A stretch of 9,253 bases of DNA from a virus (lineage: Duplodnaviria; Heunggongvirae; Uroviricota; Caudoviricetes), in IMG/VR virus record IMGVR_UViG_2713896781_000016; one strand, 5' to 3'. The position numbers and the translations under genes were made by a program. The notes beneath the pieces are model-generated. The model made no database searches. It was not told the origin of the DNA and saw nothing but the letters and a program-made list of their open reading frames with translations. Of this stretch, positions 1 through 7,752 are shown piece by piece (position 1 is the stretch's first letter; each line of letters begins with the position of its first letter).

Positions 1-669
1 GGTGGCGGTCTGTTCTCCCGGTATGATGTCGCTTTCACGGTATACGGAGCGGATTTTTTCCGCCGGTAATCCCAGAGAGCGACGCGATACTGCCTCAGGT
101 AATGCGTCCACCACCTGATTGCAGACTGCCCACCAGGATAATTCAGCCAGCGATAATTCCCGCTCCTGCGTGCCATTCATTACATGGCGTATGACGTCAA
201 TCATCCAGGCTGTCAGATTTTGTTGAGTAAGTTGCTCAAGTGATTCGGAGGTCTGGTCGCGCAGCTGGTTGTCGCAGTGCCAGCACAACACCATTGCGCC
301 AGCACCGTAACTGTGAATAACGGTTTCGCTGTGATGATAATCGCCGTGTGGCCACTGGCAGGATTTCACGTGACGTAATAACCAGTCAGACAGTGCACCA
401 GCGCCGCCAGCTGCACGAATCACCCGCTCATCGCTGAAAAATGGCAGCAGTGATTTATCTTCCGCCAGCGGCTGGCGAACAGCAGGAACCGCTCCAGATG
501 GCAGCGCCCGCATGTTTTTCGGTTCCGGCTCCACCAGCACCCTGCCGCGATGAAAAACTGGCAATGATTCACGACCGGGCTTAAGGACCACCAGCCCGAG
601 TTCCGGAACCAGAACAGGTCGAAGTAATACCCGCACATTACCTCCAGACGCGCTGACGGTAGCAGGCAT
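1..669 (-). CDS. Hypothetical prophage protein, 5' part only (223 codons in window, continues beyond position 1); possibly DUF968/YdfU-like, unverified
   Basis: Minus-strand frame (plus triplet start = 1 mod 3) has no stop from 720 down to 1; ATG at 669-667. Manual translation begins MPATVSASGGNVRVLLRPV and includes LCWHCDNQLRDQTSESLEQ. Not in the ORF track because it has no in-window stop. Weak SD, so start uncertain. Confidence 0.5.
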   Translation of the reverse strand, partial: MPATVSASGGNVRVLLRPVLVPELGLVVLKPGRESLPVFHRGRVLVEPEPKNMRALPSGAVPAVRQPLAEDKSLLPFFSDERVIRAAGGAGALSDWLLRHVKSCQWPHGDYHHSETVIHSYGAGAMVLCWHCDNQLRDQTSESLEQLTQQNLTAWMIDVIRHVMNGTQERELSLAELSWWAVCNQVVDALPEAVSRRSLGLPAEKIRSVYRESDIIPGEQTAT

Positions 670-910
670 GTGTCCGTGGCAGATGTGCACGAACAGGAAG
701 ATATACAGAAACGGTCCAGGTCAGACGATCAGCGTTCAGACTCCGCTCCACACGGACACCGCGACGCAGATACGCCTCTTGAAGCATATCTGCCTCATCG
801 ATCGTACAGAACAGATAGTGAAACCAGCCATACTGAGGCGCACGAAAACGCCTCCCCTGCTTAATTTCCGGGTCGGCTTCAGAATTGTGGGATTTTATGT
901 GTTGTGTCAT
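638..910 (-). CDS. Hypothetical small protein (90 aa); position matches the small gene between ydfU and hok in Qin-like prophages, identity unverified
   Basis: ORF track 638..910; ATG at 910 preceded by GGAGAA 6 nt upstream; candidate promoter just upstream. C-terminal 29 aa are Arg-rich and low complexity, and overlap the next ORF start by 32 nt in another frame. Confidence 0.4.
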   Translation of the reverse strand: MTQHIKSHNSEADPEIKQGRRFRAPQYGWFHYLFCTIDEADMLQEAYLRRGVRVERSLNADRLTWTVSVYLPVRAHLPRTHACYRQRVWR

Positions 911-959
911 CGGATTCTCCGGTGACAGCAGGTGTCAGTTGTTCAGGCTGACTGCGCGA

Positions 960-988
960 ATTGTAAGGCAATACGCCGGAATGTACAA
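960..988 (-). promoter_or_regulatory. Candidate sigma70 promoter for the 90-aa ORF operon (-35 TTGTAC at 988-983, 17-bp spacer, -10 TACAAT at 965-960)
   Basis: Hexamers read directly on the reverse complement; sits between the BOF terminator and the ATG at 910. Confidence 0.35.
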
Positions 989-1013
989 ACAGAAAACCCG
1001 TCAGTAAGACGGG
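985..1013 (-). terminator. Rho-independent terminator downstream of the BOF gene
   Basis: Minus-strand RNA: stem CCCGUC / GACGGG (plus 997-1002 and 1008-1013) with 5-nt loop, followed by UUUUCUGUUUGU (plus 996-985). Lies 19 nt past the BOF stop. Confidence 0.6.
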
Positions 1014-1031
1014 CTTAACAAGCAGGGGCGG

Positions 1032-1376
1032 TTACTTTAATAATTTCAGTGCCTTTACATCAACTTCAACACTGCTCAGGTCTTTATCAATTTCACCCTC
1101 AATTCTTACTTTGTCTTTCGGAGAAACATTCTGCCCGGCCCATACGCTGTCATCAATATCCGTGACAATTGTCCCGCTATTGTCACGAAACTCATAACGT
1201 TCATCACCCACTTTTTTAACGATGCTCCCTTCAAGGATAACCCATGCATCATCCTTCAGTTCTTTTGCCTGCGCTACTGTTGAACGCTCTGCTTCTGGCC
1301 CCTGGAAACCACCCTGCTGTGCAAAAGCGCCAAAAGACACACCGGAAATAAGTGCTGCAATCAATACCTTTTTCAT
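1032..1376 (-). CDS. BOF (YgiW/YdeI) family periplasmic OB-fold protein with signal peptide
   Basis: 114 aa; N-terminal MKKVLIAALISGVSFGAFA signal peptide; body ILEGSIVKKVGDERYEFRDNSGTIVTDIDDSVWAGQNV matches the BOF pattern from memory. ATG at 1376 with AGAGGA SD. Confidence 0.8.
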   Translation of the reverse strand: MKKVLIAALISGVSFGAFAQQGGFQGPEAERSTVAQAKELKDDAWVILEGSIVKKVGDERYEFRDNSGTIVTDIDDSVWAGQNVSPKDKVRIEGEIDKDLSSVEVDVKALKLLK

Positions 1377-1495
1377 TCATAGTCCTCTTTCAGAGATGAA
1401 CATTCAAACAGCATTTTCAGTATGGTAAAGCGCGGGTGCGTTGAGGATGCCTGACACATCAGAGGTGGCGGGAGATTACTCCCCCGCCTGGTCTC

Positions 1496-1688
1496 TTACT
1501 TCTCAGATTCGTAGTCTACGAAGACAGCGACCTCCGTCTGACCGGTTCGGATTCGCACCTCGCAGAGGTCTTTCCTCGTTACCAGTGCCGTCACTATGAC
1601 GGTTAAACAGATGACGATCNNNNNNNNNNNNNNNNNNNNNNNNNNNNNNNNNNNNNNNNNNNNNNNNNNTCGCCTTTTGCTGCTTCAT
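1496..1688 (-). CDS. Hok/Gef-family type I toxin (small membrane toxin), coding sequence interrupted by the assembly gap
   Basis: ATG at 1688 gives MKQQKA, then N-run; after the gap, manual translation of 1618..1499 gives IVICLTVIVTALVTRKDLCEVRIRTGQTEVAVFVDYESEK then TAA at 1498-1496. Near-identical to Gef/RelF as recalled. AAGGAG SD 9 nt upstream of ATG. The track ORF 1503..1745 is a wrong-frame artefact of the N-run. Confidence 0.75.
1620..1669. other. Assembly gap (50 N) inside the hok-family gene
   Basis: Run of n characters. Flanks imply only about 11 nt (MLIAL region) are really missing, so the gap length is a placeholder. Confidence 0.95.
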
Positions 1689-1978
1689 AGCCTGCTTCTC
1701 CTTGCCTTTCGGCACGTAAGAGGCTAACCTACATGTGTTCAGCATGGATTGAGCCTCAGATTAATGTTAAGCGTCTTGCAGGACGCGTAATGTTAACTGG
1801 GGCTTTTCTCTATCTGCCGTTGGTGTTCATGCCCGAGGCAGATAGCCTCAAGCACCCGCTGCAATTCTACTTAACTATCCTTTTCCCGCAAACCGTTTTT
1901 ATCCCCAGCGGCAAATCGAATACACCACCAGCGCCACCGCCATCGCAATTCCTACCGTTGTGAATGCTTCAGGCCAGG

Positions 1979-2536
1979 TCATTGATTCACCTCCTGCGGC
2001 GGTTCTGGTAGCGACATCCAGTGGGTTGCTTGCCTAAGATCATTACCCGGACTAACTGCTATACCTCCGCGCCGGAACGTGCCTCCGAGATAGCGTGCGG
2101 AATATATTAATGGCCCAGCCTCGCTATCGATATTCATCGAAATAAGCACGTTCTGGCTCTTTTCAGGCATTCGCTCAGTACAGCTTATCCAGCCATCCAG
2201 AGTTATCGGAGATCTGGTTGACGTTTCCGAGATTTCCCGAAAATTGTTGGTTGACGAATTCTTATTTTCCCGAAAGTTTCCGGCCTGAAGCATGGCGACG
2301 CGGCAGGCGTTCCAGCCATCAGCATATGTTTTAGTTACACCGTCGAGATGGCAGGTAAGCAAATCCATTTCATCAGGCACTACCATTGCTATCGGCTCTG
2401 CTTCCAGTGATGCCAGCGCGATACGAAACACATTAGCCAGCAGGCTGTCTGAAGACTTGTTATCGTGCGCCGAGTCGCTCAGGAAGCCTGTGATGTATGA
2501 TTTAATCTCCGCGCGTTCTCTGGTAATAGTGCTCAT
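1979..2536 (-). CDS. DUF551-like prophage protein (185 aa)
   Basis: C-terminal GWISCTERMPE...ATHWMSLPEPP matches the DUF551 hallmark (W..P.PP) from memory; ATG at 2536, 1 nt after the stop of the upstream small ORF. Confidence 0.65.
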   Translation of the reverse strand: MSTITRERAEIKSYITGFLSDSAHDNKSSDSLLANVFRIALASLEAEPIAMVVPDEMDLLTCHLDGVTKTYADGWNACRVAMLQAGNFRENKNSSTNNFREISETSTRSPITLDGWISCTERMPEKSQNVLISMNIDSEAGPLIYSARYLGGTFRRGGIAVSPGNDLRQATHWMSLPEPPQEVNQ

Positions 2537-2537
2537 A

Positions 2538-2756
2538 TCAGTTTTCCTTATACGGATTAATTTTATTGTGCAGTGCGCTGAATGATTCCCATGTCACATC
2601 GGTATATAGCTCAATAACTGGTTCAAATGTCCTTCCAATTATCCAGACCAGTAATAGCGGGGATATCGGTATCATCAACACTATAAACAGAATGAAAAAC
2701 AGAAACTCTGTTGTTCTGCTCTTTCGTGGGTAATTTTTTTCTAAATAATGTTTCAT
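2538..2756 (-). CDS. Small single-pass membrane protein (72 aa), unknown function
   Basis: Hydrophobic stretch FLFFILFIVLMIPISPLLLVWII flanked by charged residues; ATG at 2756; coupled to the downstream DUF551-like gene. Confidence 0.5.
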   Translation of the reverse strand: MKHYLEKNYPRKSRTTEFLFFILFIVLMIPISPLLLVWIIGRTFEPVIELYTDVTWESFSALHNKINPYKEN

Positions 2757-2783
2757 TTCTTACCGCCCTTTCGGGCGGCCTCC
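2757..2783 (-). promoter_or_regulatory. Structured translation initiation region: GGAGG, stable GAAA-tetraloop hairpin, then start codon
   Basis: Minus-strand RNA: GGAGG (plus 2783-2779), stem CCGCCC/GGGCGG (plus 2778-2763) with GAAA loop, then UAAGAA AUG. Linear SD-AUG spacing is about 22 nt, about 6 nt if the hairpin is looped out. Confidence 0.4.
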
Positions 2784-2883
2784 TGATGTTCTGAGGGTGC
2801 AGGAATCCCTCCGGTTAAGGATTTAATAAAAATCGTTTCTGATTTAAATCTTCAGTATTTAGTTGTTAGTTGGTTTATCGCCT

Positions 2884-3195
2884 TTATGCTTCAGCCTTAT
2901 TTCGCAACCAGACACAAACCGGGCCATCTTCCGTATCATGAATGGAACCAATAAACCAGCCATCGCCCTCTGGTCGTTCCGGTTCCCATGCAGAAATATC
3001 AGCATCACACGCATCAAGGTCAGCACATCCTTCATCTCTGAAGCAGAGGACGTATTGAAGATTATTTTCCTCCATCCAGGCGTTAAACTCTTCCGTTGAA
3101 ATATATTCCCGACCATCACAGAATTTTTCATATTCAGGATGTGTCCAGTAGCCATATCCGTCACGAACTACCGGCATTTCTTTAATTTTACTCAC
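2884..3195 (-). CDS. Hypothetical acidic protein (103 aa), GTG start
   Basis: ORF track 2884..3195; first codon is GTG at 3195-3193 with GGAGG 6 nt upstream; overlaps upstream gene stop by 8 nt. Asp/Glu/Cys-rich; no family recognised. Confidence 0.5.
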   Translation of the reverse strand: MSKIKEMPVVRDGYGYWTHPEYEKFCDGREYISTEEFNAWMEENNLQYVLCFRDEGCADLDACDADISAWEPERPEGDGWFIGSIHDTEDGPVCVWLRNKAEA

Positions 3196-4463: not shown

Positions 4464-5210
4464 TTACTTCACAACCCTCTGATTGCTGACATTTGGACGC
4501 CAGCTATCCCAGTTAAACGTCACCCACCGACCACCGTTCATGGTCATGCGGTCCATAATCCTCTCACCAAGAAGCGTGCTCATTGCGGCATGATTCAGGT
4601 TTGTTAACATCCCGACACTGCACAGTGATGCTGTCCGGCGATCAATTATCTGGTGTAATACCACCTGCTCGTTTTTCGTCTCCCGCTGAACGCCTATTTC
4701 ATCCAGGACCAGCAAATCAACACTGCAAAGCTCCTGTAAAAATTTTTCCCCGGATTTGCCGTTGTCGTAGCTGTCATGCAACACGCTCATGACATCAGAC
4801 ACGGTGACGATAATCACGCTGCGCCCCTTCGCCATCAGCCGGTTACCCATCGCCGCTGCAAGGTGATTTTTCCCGGTGCCGGTTTTACCGCTGAACACAA
4901 AATTCGTGCACCCGGTCATCAGTTCGTCAGCTATGGATTTGGCCTGGCTCAGCGCGTATTTTTGCCCGTCGTTCTGCACCTGATAATTCGCAAACGAGCA
5001 TTTGCTGTGCAGAGGCTGGATGCCCGAACGATTCAGGATTTTTTCCACCCGCAACTGGTGATTCTGGCGGTTAATCTCCTCGCTGCGTTTTCGTCCTTCA
5101 ACAAGTTGCCATTCCCGCCACTCCTCCACCGTCCGGTACGGTGGAACCGACGCCTGTGGTGCAAGTCTGCGAATACGTTCAAGAACCCCGGCTGCCGCAA
5201 TGTTTTTCAT
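4464..5210 (-). CDS. DnaC-type replicative helicase loader (AAA+ ATPase)
   Basis: 248 aa; Walker A FVFSGKTGTGKNHLAAA, Walker B LLVLDEIGVQ, and C-terminal GMLTN...LGERIMDRM...WVTFNWDSWR closely parallel E. coli DnaC as recalled. ATG at 5210, 6 nt after the O-like stop. Confidence 0.9.
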   Translation of the reverse strand: MKNIAAAGVLERIRRLAPQASVPPYRTVEEWREWQLVEGRKRSEEINRQNHQLRVEKILNRSGIQPLHSKCSFANYQVQNDGQKYALSQAKSIADELMTGCTNFVFSGKTGTGKNHLAAAMGNRLMAKGRSVIIVTVSDVMSVLHDSYDNGKSGEKFLQELCSVDLLVLDEIGVQRETKNEQVVLHQIIDRRTASLCSVGMLTNLNHAAMSTLLGERIMDRMTMNGGRWVTFNWDSWRPNVSNQRVVK

Positions 5211-5216
5211 GCCACA

Positions 5217-6299
5217 TCACCCCCTGAATCCCGGCGGAATTTCGGTATCCGGTTCAGAAATATGATTCACACAACGCTGGTTGTTCGTGCCGCTTACCGG
5301 GAGCAACCAGGGGTTTTCAAAATTCCGGTCCGGCCCAAAAAACGTCGTCGCTCGCTGAACAAATTCCGTTCCCGTTTTCCCGGTAGCCGCCAGGTATCTT
5401 GCGTAACGCCTCACACCATCCAGTATGGCCTCTGGTGGCACCCCCTCGCGTAATCTGGCCTTCCAGGCACTGAAAGCGGATTTCTTCGGGTTTGCCCCAG
5501 CACGCAACGGGTATTCCCGCCAGACCTGTTCGAACACATCCGGATAATCCACTCGTCCCACAGGCTGCCCGGTGTTTTCCGGGACTACCCGATCGGCTTC
5601 CCGCTGAATGGCGGAATCGGCTTCAGGCTGCTGCAGTTGGTGTGATTGCTCCGGCCTTGCGGTCATCACCTGCTGCACAGCGCCCGAATCGGCTTTCAGC
5701 GCATACGCTGAATCGGCTTCCGGTGTCGTGCCTGCTGGCTGACCAGGATTGACGGTCTGAACATCCCCTGCCTGGTTCGTGGCGTTTTTTACGCCATGGA
5801 CCATAGTGTTTTGATCTTCTTGATCTGTATCTTTATCTGTATCTTTATCTGTATCTTTATCTGTCGTGACTCGTCGTGACATGTGCGTGACATTTCGTGA
5901 CGCGCCGTGACAATCGCCATTTTGTTCCCGCTTTCTTTCCCTCTCACGCTGCGCCCTCTTGCGCTCTGCCGGAGATTTTGCGGTTTGCGAAATATTGCCG
6001 TTGTCCTCTTTAAGCACCTGGCGTTTCTCCCATCCAGTGATTAAATCACCATCAAGTACCCGCCCCTGCATCGTCTGCAAAATTGAATCAATTACCTCTT
6101 CTGTCACGTCGAGCGCACTTGCCAAATCTTCTGTCGTGACATCAATGTGACCTCGCGTGACATTTCGTGACGCGCTCACCAGGAGGTGGATATACACTGC
6201 CATCACTGTTGCAATTGGCTGCCCTGACACCCTGGCAATTGTTCGCCACTTAGGGTCATTTGGCATGTCATGCCATAATCTGAGCCAAGCGTTAGCCAT
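5217..6299 (-). CDS. Phage replication initiation protein (lambda O-like replisome organiser) containing internal iteron arrays
   Basis: ATG at 6299 with GGAGG 5 nt upstream (track start 6305 is GTG). Immediately upstream of the DnaC-like gene. Central low-complexity linker (TDKD)x4 coincides with DNA tandem repeats and CGTGAC iterons, as with lambda ori inside O. Confidence 0.75.
   Translation of the reverse strand: MANAWLRLWHDMPNDPKWRTIARVSGQPIATVMAVYIHLLVSASRNVTRGHIDVTTEDLASALDVTEEVIDSILQTMQGRVLDGDLITGWEKRQVLKEDNGNISQTAKSPAERKRAQRERERKREQNGDCHGASRNVTHMSRRVTTDKDTDKDTDKDTDQEDQNTMVHGVKNATNQAGDVQTVNPGQPAGTTPEADSAYALKADSGAVQQVMTARPEQSHQLQQPEADSAIQREADRVVPENTGQPVGRVDYPDVFEQVWREYPLRAGANPKKSAFSAWKARLREGVPPEAILDGVRRYARYLAATGKTGTEFVQRATTFFGPDRNFENPWLLPVSGTNNQRCVNHISEPDTEIPPGFRG
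5823..5864. repeat. 12-bp tandem repeat (ATCTGTATCTTT) x3.5
   Basis: Exact units at 5823-5834, 5835-5846, 5847-5858 plus partial 5859-5864; encodes TDKDTDKDTDKD on the minus strand. Confidence 0.9.
5865..5911. repeat. Iteron array: five CGTGAC copies at 10-11 bp spacing (putative origin core)
   Basis: CGTGAC at 5865, 5875, 5886, 5896, 5906; followed by a pyrimidine/T-rich stretch 5912-5945. Confidence 0.6.
6103..6175. repeat. Second iteron cluster plus an exact 21-bp direct repeat of the first cluster
   Basis: CGTGAC at 6135, 6156, 6166; variant TGTGAC at 6146; inverted copy GTCACG at 6103-6108. GCGTGACATTTCGTGACGCGC is identical at 5885-5905 and 6155-6175. Confidence 0.55.
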
Positions 6300-6370
6300 A
6301 CTCACCTCCTCTGATACCGAATCTTTTTACTCACGAATTGCCGGAAGCGATTCGATATGGCTATTGTCAG

Positions 6371-6796
6371 TCAATGTACTGCCACAGCATTTCCTGCCGG
6401 GCCACCACGGTTCATCTGATTGAAACCGGCGATTGCCACTGCGACAAAATCATCAGCGTCTCTCACCAGTCGCTCCCGCGTCTCCACCAGCTCCCGAAAA
6501 TAAGTTGAACTGTGGCTGCGCATTCTGGCCACCAGCAAAGGTGGCATTGCCTTTTCGATCGCTGGTAACAACGCCTGAATTTTTTCAACTGCATCAGGGG
6601 TGTCTTTCTCTATCCAGCGGAAAATTTTCTGGGTATTGCGAGCCAGGGCTTCCGGATGGCTGTCGTCATACAGTTCCGGGAACGTCATACCCAGTTCGAA
6701 ATACGCTTTGGTAATCTTCGCAGTCGGTACTTTTTCGCCGTCCGGATGCGCCCAGGCATTCATCGCCATGCGGATGTGTTCATGCTTGATTTTCAT
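6371..6796 (-). CDS. YdaT-like protein (cII-analogous position), 141 aa
   Basis: Internal ATG at 6796 gives MKIKHEHIRMAMNAW..., matching the YdaT N-terminus as recalled; G-rich SD upstream. The track N-terminal extension to 6868 looks non-coding. Confidence 0.7.
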   Translation of the reverse strand: MKIKHEHIRMAMNAWAHPDGEKVPTAKITKAYFELGMTFPELYDDSHPEALARNTQKIFRWIEKDTPDAVEKIQALLPAIEKAMPPLLVARMRSHSSTYFRELVETRERLVRDADDFVAVAIAGFNQMNRGGPAGNAVAVH

Positions 6797-7022
6797 GAAT
6801 CCCCCCTTGGTTAGAAGGCGGATTATGATCAGAATCGGGAATGACAACCGTCGGTATGTGTAACTCATATTTGAGCGCCCCGGCAGTGACTGCCTGAATT
6901 AGCAACGCCCATTTCCACGGAACGTCTTCCCCCCACATGCTGACTGTGGTTTTTGACGTTCCTAGAGCGGCGGCTGTTTTAACAACTCCGCCAAAATAGC
7001 CTAATACTTCTGATTTTTTCAT
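6780..7022 (-). CDS. Cro/YdaS-like HTH regulator (80 aa)
   Basis: ATG at 7022 with GGAG 9 nt upstream; MKKSEVLGYFGGVVKTAAALGTSKTTVSMWGE is a Cro/YdaS-type HTH. Divergent from the repressor across a 91-bp operator region; 3' end overlaps the YdaT-like start by 17 nt. Confidence 0.8.
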   Translation of the reverse strand: MKKSEVLGYFGGVVKTAAALGTSKTTVSMWGEDVPWKWALLIQAVTAGALKYELHIPTVVIPDSDHNPPSNQGGIHENQA

Positions 7023-7050
7023 GAGTCGCTCCATAAAACTGAACGCCAAA

Positions 7051-7114
7051 AGTTTAATAATCAAAACCAAAGAAAGTCAAGAAACAAAACCATCTGTGTT
7101 TTAAAATCAAAACA
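7051..7114. promoter_or_regulatory. OR-like operator region with two GTTT-N8-AAAC palindromes (7051-7068 and 7097-7114) and a possible leaderless PRM (-10 TAAAAT at 7102-7107)
   Basis: aGTTTaataatcaAAACc at 7051-7068 and TGTTTTaaaatcAAAACA at 7097-7114; the latter abuts the repressor ATG at 7114, which has no SD. Confidence 0.5.
7052..7080 (-). promoter_or_regulatory. PR-like promoter for the cro operon (-35 TTGACT at 7080-7075, 17-bp spacer, -10 TAAACT at 7057-7052)
   Basis: Read on the reverse complement; same -10 hexamer as the PL-like promoter; overlapped by an operator-like palindrome at 7051-7068. Confidence 0.5.
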
Positions 7115-7752
7115 TGAACAAGCAAACAATATCTGAACGCATAACCCAACGTATGCATGCGCTAAACTTGAAAGGCAAAGACCTTGTCAATGCCACTGGC
7201 GCATCAAAAGGCTCCGTAAGTCAATGGATGAACGGTGGAGGAGCGCCGTCCTCGCGTTACATAAGTTCACTGGCAAAGATATTGAAAGTAAACGAAAATT
7301 GGCTTCTTAATGGAGGAGAGTTAAATACAGGTGATTCGCTTGATCTATCTTTACCGCCGATAAAAACGGTTCCGCTACTATCACTTCAGCAGGCAGCAAG
7401 CTGGAGTGATTATATGAAAAATTCCTCAATAACCTCTTGTGTGCAGCTTGTCGGAGAAATCCCGGCCAATACCTTTGCTGTTGTTCTAGAGAGTGACAGT
7501 ATGTCGACATCTGGTGGTGGAGTTTCCATCCCAAATGGTTCAACAGTTTTTGTTGATCCCGATCGAATCGTACAACCAGGAAATATTGTCCTTGCCTTAC
7601 CCAAAGGGACCACAACGCCTGTCATTCGCAAACTGGAGATAGAAGGGCCGGATATTCTTTTAGTCCCCACGAATCCTCGCTACCCTTCAATTATGCTGGA
7701 TGATCTATCTTGCATATTGGGAGTATGCTTTAAAATTCAACAAGATATTTAA
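7114..7752 (+). CDS. CI/LexA-like prophage repressor: N-terminal XRE-type HTH plus C-terminal S24 peptidase domain
   Basis: 212 aa; N-terminal ISERITQRMHALNLKGKDLVNATGASKGSVSQWMNG; C-terminal DSM serine motif and VIRKL lysine consistent with an S24 Ser/Lys dyad. Confidence 0.9.
   Translation: MNKQTISERITQRMHALNLKGKDLVNATGASKGSVSQWMNGGGAPSSRYISSLAKILKVNENWLLNGGELNTGDSLDLSLPPIKTVPLLSLQQAASWSDYMKNSSITSCVQLVGEIPANTFAVVLESDSMSTSGGGVSIPNGSTVFVDPDRIVQPGNIVLALPKGTTTPVIRKLEIEGPDILLVPTNPRYPSIMLDDLSCILGVCFKIQQDI

Follow-up and report, generated by a model that had tools for sequence, protein, structure and literature searches.

The 9,253-nt stretch of the Caudoviricetes record IMGVR_UViG_2713896781_000016 (referred to below as the window) covers the part of a Rac/lambdoid-type E. 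coli prophage that governs immunity and replication, and carries on its minus strand a replication initiator gene (5217-6299) encoding 360 residues from an ATG at 6299. Judged from sequence comparison, window positions 5773-5911 probably constitute the core replication origin of this prophage, located inside the gene of its own initiator. In gene order, the elements concerned are a phased iteron array (array 2, 6135-6171), an inverted iteron copy (6103-6108), another phased array (array 1, 5865-5911, codons 130-145), an A+T-rich tandem tract (5818-5864, codons 146-161), and an inverted repeat (5773-5803). Array 1 is proposed to be the main initiator-binding array and array 2 an auxiliary one, while both arrays and the tract are almost certainly functional DNA elements. 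The original prediction, made from the letters of the window without database searches, had placed an origin inside this gene, and the comparative evidence presented here (conservation, covariation with the N-terminal domain, and the position of the linker array beside the A+T-rich tract) supports that placement.

The protein is predicted to consist of a winged-helix N-terminal domain (N-domain, residues ~1-100), a basic helix (~105-128), a linker encoded by the putative origin (130-176), and a C-terminal domain; residues are numbered from the ATG at 6299, as the mechanically called open reading frame begins at a GTG at 6305. Array 1 lies in the linker-coding part. Read in gene order, its five coding-strand GTCACG hexamers follow one another at steps of 10, 10, 11, and 10 bp (on the plus strand, CGTGAC at 5865, 5875, 5886, 5896, and 5906 with spacings of 10, 11, 10, and 10); they are the five copies at helical spacing that had been predicted. 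Array 2 has the same orientation and consists of three GTCACG and one GTCACA on the minus strand, spaced 10, 10, and 11 bp in codons 43-55. Its plus-strand CGTGAC copies at 6135, 6156, and 6166 match the second cluster of the prediction; together with a one-mismatch TGTGAC at 6146 they make four phased copies at steps of 11, 10, and 10 bp. The separation of about 270 bp between the two clusters was also found as described, as was the inverted copy at 6103, which reads CGTGAC on the coding (minus) strand and GTCACG on the plus strand, and lies 27 bp past array 2 in codons 64-66 (D-V-T). Each iteron is a direct repeat unit of 10-11 bp, and its 6-bp core is not a palindrome.

CGTGAC occurs 14 times in the window against 3.96 expected, a count reached in none of 200 shuffles, and by our own arithmetic the expected number of occurrences of four further copies of one hexamer at 10/11-bp steps is about 1e-9 in 18.5 kb, both strands considered. 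An exact 21-bp copy shared by the two clusters had been pointed out as well, and is real (5885-5905 is identical to 6155-6175, with the identity ending there). It is not kept as a unit, as phage Evi already has a changed spacer base, and the exact identity is incidental.

Alignment with related prophage genes, which had been suggested as a check on the prediction, shows that the same layout recurs widely. A 611-bp query covering both arrays (5700-6310) found a match in 2221 of 5426 complete E. coli genomes, with at least 80% of the query present in 1649; RefSeq labels the gene as “hypothetical protein” or “phage replisome organizer” and the origin feature is not annotated. In a scan using one genome per species, we found 62 loci, 60 of them usable, which span gamma-, beta-, and alpha-proteobacteria and a few metagenome-assembled genomes of Acidobacteria. 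A phased hexamer at 10/11-bp steps is present in the linker-coding region (~+350 to +440 nt) in 56 of the 60 loci. The recurrent layout consists of three to seven linker hexamers followed by a GATAAA/GATACA tract, usually with a second phased array in codons 43-56. Within the loci that use GTCACG, neighboring hexamers are 10 bp apart in 99 cases and 11 bp apart in 29, and an inverted copy occupies the same place in many of them. Pseudomonas phage phita81A and Aeromonas phage pAEv1818, which share ~70% DNA identity with the window over the N-terminal half of the gene, also have two CGTGAC arrays at 10-bp steps, an inverted copy, and a tctttatc-type tract adjoining the linker array, together with C-terminal domains and downstream genes unlike those of the window.

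The hexamer itself differs between lineages, and does so in both arrays of a gene together. We distinguished the classes GTCACG (~28 loci), GTAACG (6 loci), and CGAACG/GAACGC (~14 loci), besides rarer hexamers such as GTGACG (L058), GGAACG (L057), AACGCC (L062), and ACTACG (L046 and L060). In 40 of 56 loci the linker hexamer occurs at least twice in a 115-nt segment of the N-domain-coding region, and in the remaining 330-950 nt of the gene it is found once or not at all (two copies in two loci). The mean count in the N-domain segment is 2.21 for a gene's own hexamer vs. 0.16 for hexamers of other classes. At least six hexamer classes are each common to both arrays of one gene. Several direct repeats in helical phase, of classes that differ between related replicons, are the pattern of iteron-type theta origins in general. 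Different hexamers occur within one host genus (Serratia, L008 vs. L046; Pantoea, L024 vs. L060; Pseudomonas, L011 vs. L036), which points to the co-inherited N-domain rather than to a host protein as the reader. On the basis of this covariation, we infer that the hexamers are the cognate binding sites of the initiator.

Which part of the N-domain might read the hexamer is a separate matter. The loop peptide encoded by array 2 was considered as the specificity determinant and ruled out, as the GTCACG and GTAACG classes can share N-V-T. The only non-loop column that separates the GTCACG from the CGAACG class lies at approximately residue 110, in the basic region after the wing, and residues ~99-112 differ by class (REDxGNPETGAKSAAERKRE in one and REDGSAERAKAWRE in the other). 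This stretch may serve as a lead to the specificity determinant, one that is confounded by phylogeny. The ACTACG proteins of Serratia and Pantoea (L046 and L060) are longer (396-436 residues) and have an extra segment after the N-domain (YVYYVATTDGDVVRVGISRNPWARCKDLK...), which gives the impression of a T5orf172/GIY-YIG-type domain.

Codon usage shows that selection acts on the DNA and not on the peptide. In the GTCACG class (21 loci, from hosts with 34-69% G+C), the codons overlapping array 2 are virtually fixed, with S44 encoded by TCA in 20 of 21 loci, and V47 (GTC), T48 (ACG), G50 (GGT), H51 (CAC), V54 (GTC), and T55 (ACG) each invariant in all 21. By comparison, the spacer codon R49, whose third base falls in the spacer, is free (CGA 9, CGC 6, CGT 5, and CGG 1), and other invariant residues of the N-domain use near-random codons (1.5-2.5 bits). 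The peptide pattern used for retrieval does not include S44, V47, or T48, so that this codon fixation cannot stem from the retrieval. In the inverted copy, V65 is GTG in 19 of 19 loci and T66 is ACA in 12 of 17. The CGAACG class, whose 12 loci were retrieved only via an unrelated MPNDPKWR pattern, replicates the result (TCG in 10 of 12; GCA, GAA, CGC, and ACG each in 10 of 10; the spacer Gly free). Moreover, in each array the hexamer is read in all three frames, as C-H (tGT CAC g), S-R (g TCA CGa), and V-T (GTC ACG), and the five hexamers of array 1 are translated as C-H, S-R, V-T, S-R, and V-T. It is because of this three-frame reading that the motifs CHxxSRNVT and ASRNVTRGHxxVT appear in protein alignments.

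These results bear on the explanation that the repeats do not function as DNA and instead represent a repeated peptide maintained at the protein level (ASRNVT..., DKDT...) or an internal duplication that is neutral. It is true that the peptides translated from the two clusters are alike (ASRNVTRGH and ASRNVTHMSRRVT), that the linker stretch translated from the tract is acidic/basic and of low complexity, and that the motifs are conserved in protein alignments. Neither version accounts for hexamer codons that are fixed in two independent classes while spacers and other invariant codons are randomized, nor for a single hexamer read in three frames, a tract made up nearly entirely of GAT, AAA, and ACA even in hosts with 60-69% G+C, a loop peptide that changes wholesale and always in step with the linker hexamer, or insertions that arrive in iteron-sized units. 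We therefore regard this explanation as scarcely credible. The two arrays, like the tract, are subject to purifying selection at the DNA level.

The tract that directly follows array 1 is an A+T-rich, purine-biased tandem repeat of the form (GATAAA GATACA)n on the minus strand, translated as DKDTDKDT... A 12-bp tandem repeat had been listed beside the iterons in the original prediction, and is present at 5818-5864 with the unit TCTTTATCTGTA and 97% matches, at 3.9 copies according to Tandem Repeats Finder rather than the 3.5 given. It is not an additional feature to the iterons, since it is likely the DNA unwinding element of the origin. Across the 60 loci the mean A+T content is 73% in the tract and 45% in the gene, purines make up 76% of the tract's coding strand, and the tract remains A+T-rich even in hosts with 69% G+C. 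At least three perfect GAnAnA hexamers are present in the tract of 28 of 59 loci, vs. none in 600 kb of flanking DNA. Its codons are almost uniform (GAT 130 of 132, AAA 79 of 82, and ACA 42 of 43), compared to ~50%, 55%, and 18%, respectively, in the rest of the same genes. The copy number of the unit varies even among near-identical E. coli relatives (12 bp shorter in phage Evi and 18 bp shorter in strain GABEEC132).

Fifteen bp beyond the tract is the inverted repeat at 5773-5803, with 13-bp arms and a 5-nt loop, which falls within the most stable 1% of the gene's 34-nt windows. In lambda, a palindrome next to the A+T-rich region occupies an analogous position. The role of the inverted repeat in the origin is uncertain. 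This downstream hairpin was considered as a family-wide component, as 38 of 60 loci at first appeared in the top 5% of windows; after a placement control the enrichment was weak (median percentile 0.33, with 21 of 60 loci in the best 20%, p 0.005), and the hairpin was retained for the window only. On the plus strand, the inverted repeat followed by a T-rich run (5773-5813) has an intrinsic-terminator-like score, antisense to the initiator gene.

Based on these elements, the following sequence of events may be proposed. The N-domain, of a “replisome organizer” type and resembling the DnaD N-terminal domain, would bind the five GTCACG iterons at 5865-5911, and as these are one helical turn apart, the initiator would line up on one face of the DNA. 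The resulting nucleoprotein complex would destabilize the adjacent GATAAA/GATACA tract (5818-5864), where the C-terminal domain with its DnaT-like tail, together with the DnaC-like protein encoded by the next gene, would load host DnaB, allowing the origin to fire. Array 2 and the inverted copy at 6103, located 230-270 bp upstream in gene orientation, would provide further sites for the initiator. Most likely, array 2 would cooperate with or control array 1, by cooperative assembly or looping, titration or handcuffing, acting as a fork barrier (like that proposed for SPP1 oriR), or serving as a roadblock for transcription that runs into the origin.

Alternatively, the arrays could be regulatory sites at which the initiator or another phage protein represses or roadblocks transcription of the gene, with replication starting elsewhere. 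Array 2 lends itself to such a role, as it lies only ~130 nt into the coding sequence (the same position as in an unrelated N-domain family, L097 and L122), has no neighboring A+T-rich tract, and is lacking in some lineages that do without it; a regulatory role may hold for this array by itself. The conserved, strand-asymmetric tract always found directly after array 1 is, by contrast, needed by an origin and not by an operator. No fewer than five N-domain families also have iterons followed by a tract in mid-gene position, among them the family of Rac ydaU, and an active origin has been reported for Rac (PMC3945230). Further, the flanking genes change between hosts while the arrays remain, and the binder is therefore likely encoded by the conserved N-domain. 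We consider regulation without an origin unlikely as an explanation for the arrays as a whole. The counts of promoter-like and terminator-like sites are not above those in shuffled sequences, the sole promoter-like site of the array/tract region consists of the iterons themselves, and no Rfam family matches there. A DnaA box candidate at ~6186-6196 was dropped, as inspection by eye shows two mismatches in it and its codons are unconstrained.

Several observations weigh against the placement of an origin here, or against parts of the proposed mechanism. Array 2 is missing in several loci, of which one is acidobacterial and the others are alpha-proteobacterial (L040, L052, L055, L057, and L062); its absence from some lineages indicates that it is auxiliary and not essential to the origin of the family. 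A helical phase between the two arrays was sought and rejected, as their distances (239-270 bp) vary in steps of ~9 with no strict phase. The GTCACG and GTAACG classes can both encode the loop N-V-T. The downstream hairpin is only weakly conserved across the family after the placement control. In searches of Pfam and NCBIfam, the initiator has no above-threshold match to a curated initiator family. The 26 phage records that contain the N-domain are all genomic only, with no model phage among them, and literature searches on such iterons, on replisome-organizer prophage origins, on the “Eru” replication regions of Stx phages, and on oriJ gave no account of this origin.

The relatives also reveal how the gene is assembled. 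In an AlphaFold2 model of residues 1-153, the core has a predicted local distance difference test score of 85-95; residues 4-14, 16-25, 29-45, 56-63, and 67-77 are helical, residues 78-87 form a beta wing, and residues 110-130 form a long basic helix. Codons 43-56, which contain array 2, span the last part of helix 29-45 together with the loop leading to helix 56-63, where the model confidence dips. This loop varies from ~10 to 35 residues across loci, with insertions that are additional iterons: a 21-bp insertion adds two iterons in E. albertii (L005) and in E. coli SW070919 (L068), and longer ones are present in L029 and L044. The loop peptide is wholly different between hexamer classes (SRNVTRGH, SNATERGRTQ, etc.), and the most economical interpretation is that any sequence demanded by the DNA signal is tolerated in the loop. 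Similarly, the linker tolerates changes in copy number and differs wholly in sequence between classes, with the repeats central in the gene.

Strain SW070919 agrees with the window in the N-domain, in both arrays, and into the beginning of the tract, and then switches exactly at the tract to an unrelated DnaT-like C-terminal domain followed by a lambda-P-type loader. Inheritance therefore follows two units, one made up of the N-domain, arrays, and tract, and the other of the C-terminal domain and loader. This modularity is relevant to a further explanation, in which the repeats serve some other DNA transaction, as a recombination or module-exchange hotspot or as a packaging or partition-type site. 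Such a role would fit the joining of the N-domain/array module to alternative C-terminal domain/loader modules exactly in the tract and the polymorphic copy number of the tract, and partition centromeres likewise consist of short direct repeats in arrays. An inter-domain linker is nevertheless where recombination would be expected, and recombination would leave selection on the hexamers unexplained; moreover, the arrays are tied to a protein with an initiator-type fold and family annotations and with a helicase loader next door, and neither a partition gene nor a terminase gene lies beside it. A role of this kind appears to us very unlikely.

The assignment of the protein as an initiator is based on fold and family comparisons. 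It belongs to PHROG 3729, “replication initiation protein” (E 1e-255), PHROG “replisome organizer” families match it at 1e-5 to 1e-7, and its relatives carry the NCBI name “phage replisome organizer.” The best fold match of the N-domain is the DnaD N-terminal domain, giving it a winged helix of the DnaD type. Two replisome organizer models span their full length on the protein below threshold: Phage_rep_org_N PF09681 (E 0.13, 12.7 bits vs. a cut-off of 23.3) and TIGR01714 (E 0.016, 15.4 bits vs. a cut-off of 49.8). No match was found in the initiator to the N-domain of lambda O (Pfam Phage_rep_O), even at E <= 10, or to RepA_N (PF06970) in the Pfam search. The C-terminal domain closes with the DnaT-like tail IPPGFRG, and a sequence search of PDB with the initiator matched only at this tail. 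The last ~22 codons (5217-5285, ...SEPDTEIPPGFRG) resemble the C-terminus of primosomal DnaT, with matches to PDB 6aep, 2ru8, and 9zbt at E 0.02-0.07 and to positions 156-179 of NCBIfam DnaT, and 13 of 19 residues are identical in the tail of K-12 Rac YdaU. By this resemblance, the tail may be a short motif that recruits the helicase or its loader.

The DnaC-like helicase-loader gene (4464-5210, minus strand; 248 residues, intact) is directly downstream of the initiator gene. Its product matches Pfam IstB_IS21 (E 2.8e-19) as well as the Bac_DnaA ATPase, scores above the cut-off for NCBIfam PRK12377 (508 bits) and below it for the DnaC equivalog (298 bits vs. a cut-off of 357), and belongs to PHROG 50, “DnaC-like helicase loader.” Presumably, this protein acts as the partner in delivering host DnaB once the origin is open.

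Iteron origins located within initiator genes are already known, and the original prediction had compared the layout to lambda. The origin of lambda lies inside O and consists of iterons plus a 39-bp region of high A+T (PMC6022878), and the window resembles it at the sequence level, with iterons followed by an A+T-rich region in codons 130-161, an order recurring in the 56 loci with a linker array. In lambda and, as proposed, in the window, the origin is within the initiator gene, in the linker-coding part between a DNA-binding N-domain and a loader-recruiting C-terminal domain, and the gene order is cro/cII-like, initiator, and loader; some relatives even couple an N-domain of the window type to a lambda-P-type loader. 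The likeness stands for the intragenic layout. It does not extend to the protein, which has no match to the lambda O family and a DnaD-type N-domain as its best fold, nor to the iterons, which are short direct repeats instead of 18-bp inverted repeats. In addition, the window has a DnaC-like loader, and its gene has a second array in the N-domain-coding region.

In fold and layout, the initiator of the window is closer to G38P of Bacillus phage SPP1 than to lambda. G38P binds direct repeats of oriL inside gene 38 that adjoin an A+T-rich unwinding element, and a second set of sites has been proposed to stall forks and trigger the switch from theta to sigma replication (PMC6316719). In SPP1, a helicase loader and the helicase come into play after the initiator. 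The window similarly has direct repeats in the initiator's own gene beside an A+T-rich element, a helicase loader that follows, and a second set of sites. Unlike array 2, which is ~250 bp away in the same gene and lacks an A+T-rich region, SPP1 oriR is ~13 kb away and has its own, and the protein of the window scores below threshold for the Phage_rep_org_N models.

Also similar is the RepA_N initiator of plasmid pSK41, in which a DnaD-like winged-helix N-terminal domain and a host-specific C-terminal domain are joined by a linker that can be dispensed with, whose gene has four Rep boxes in the middle of rep, and for which the N-terminal domain and origin were swapped as a unit in pPR9 (PMC5703833). 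The three-part protein with a linker encoded by the origin (a putative one here) is shared with the window, and the switch in SW070919 parallels the pPR9 swap. Differences are that the protein of the window has no Pfam RepA_N match and comes from a phage setting in Gram-negative hosts, and that PMC5703833 describes neither an array in the part encoding the N-terminal domain nor a GATAAA-type tract, the comparison being made with that description.

The K-12 Rac prophage (ydaS-ydaT-ydaU-ydaV) has the same series of genes, comprising a cro-like gene (P22_Cro in the window and YdaS in Rac), a YdaT-like gene, an initiator gene, and a DnaC-like gene. Mid-gene in ydaU are four to five repeats of (C)AGATGTTCAA, followed by AATAAAGATACAGATAAAGAT and then by a C7...G5 palindrome, CCCCCCCTAAATCCCCCCCGGGGG (L070 3972-4157), and the protein ends in the same tail, IPPGFRG. 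Instead of the N-domain of the window, YdaU has a DUF1376 N-domain with a different repeat, and BLASTP similarity between the two is confined to the linker and the tail. As the active origin reported for Rac is oriJ (PMC3945230), we suggest L070 3972-4157 in ydaU as a candidate for its position, judging from the sequence layout.

A scan of viral contigs for (GATAAA)3GAT gave 120 hits, most of which were rejected as low-complexity DNA in low-G+C or giant-virus contigs. In 16 cases phased hexamers are present just upstream, always in mid-ORF (open reading frame) position, and these represent at least five N-domain families, namely that of the window, a YdaU-like family, an “LPYFKF” family, a classical WIKI/L-type replisome organizer, and others. 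The “LPYFKF” family (MSKELPYFKF..., L097 and L122) has its own hexamer, AGCAAA, in two arrays, one ~140 nt into the gene and the other directly ahead of the tract. Two arrays per gene are therefore not peculiar to the family of the window.

Taken further, the data allow a broader proposal, which we put forward tentatively and consider somewhat more likely to fail than to hold in its entirety. The N-domain and both arrays would form a self-contained “specificity cassette” of ~450 bp, in which the loop is a landing pad for the initiator's own sites, with residues dictated by origin DNA and not by the function of the protein, so that initiator and origin specificity change together, and this layout would have arisen in at least two unrelated N-domain families. 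At the same time, the GATAAA/GATACA tract would be a sequence-specific unwinding/loading element that five or more initiator families have in common, among them the family of Rac ydaU, recognized by a shared strand-specific single-strand contact or by a host factor.

Compared to the examples above, what is new is the co-varying second array in a loop of the DNA-binding domain, and the tract conserved in sequence across initiator families. Placing the origin indicates where replication of these prophages would start after induction, and bears on the in-situ amplification of neighboring genes and on Stx- and Rac-like elements. The arrays are also a case of dual coding, in which the same DNA is a protein code and a putative protein-binding array, and peptide motifs such as CHxxSRNVT and ASRNVTRGH are the shadow of a DNA signal; motif and domain annotation should not take such DNA-imposed motifs as protein function. 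The hexamer classes (GTCACG, GTAACG, CGAACG, GTGACG, and others) with their matched N-domains provide a set for decoding how a winged-helix family reads DNA, and could supply compatible orthogonal origins. Lastly, array 2 raises the role of extra initiator sites near an origin, and can be removed by synonymous recoding with the protein unchanged.

Besides the initiator and loader genes, profile and family searches of the window identified an S24 repressor gene (7114-7752, plus strand), a P22-Cro-like gene (6780-7070, minus strand), and a YdaT/CII-like gene (6371-6868, minus strand), and a DUF1627 gene comes after the DnaC-like gene in the series. E. coli 95-3192 carries a near-identical prophage (L069 3452-5511, with a 100% match to 5700-6310) in which an IS3-family element interrupts the DnaC-like loader gene, and this copy is probably replication-defective. 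With its intact loader gene, the window therefore derives from another strain or another copy. A sok antitoxin RNA is present at 1683-1857 of the window (minus strand; Rfam RF01794, 113.5 bits vs. a gathering score of 59), and as a Hok/Gef family gene is annotated at the corresponding place in 95-3192, the prophage contains a hok/sok module. A large share of the database entries for the initiator are marked “partial” and come from short contigs that end inside the gene, which suggests that short-read assemblies often break there, owing to multi-copy prophages and/or the internal repeats.

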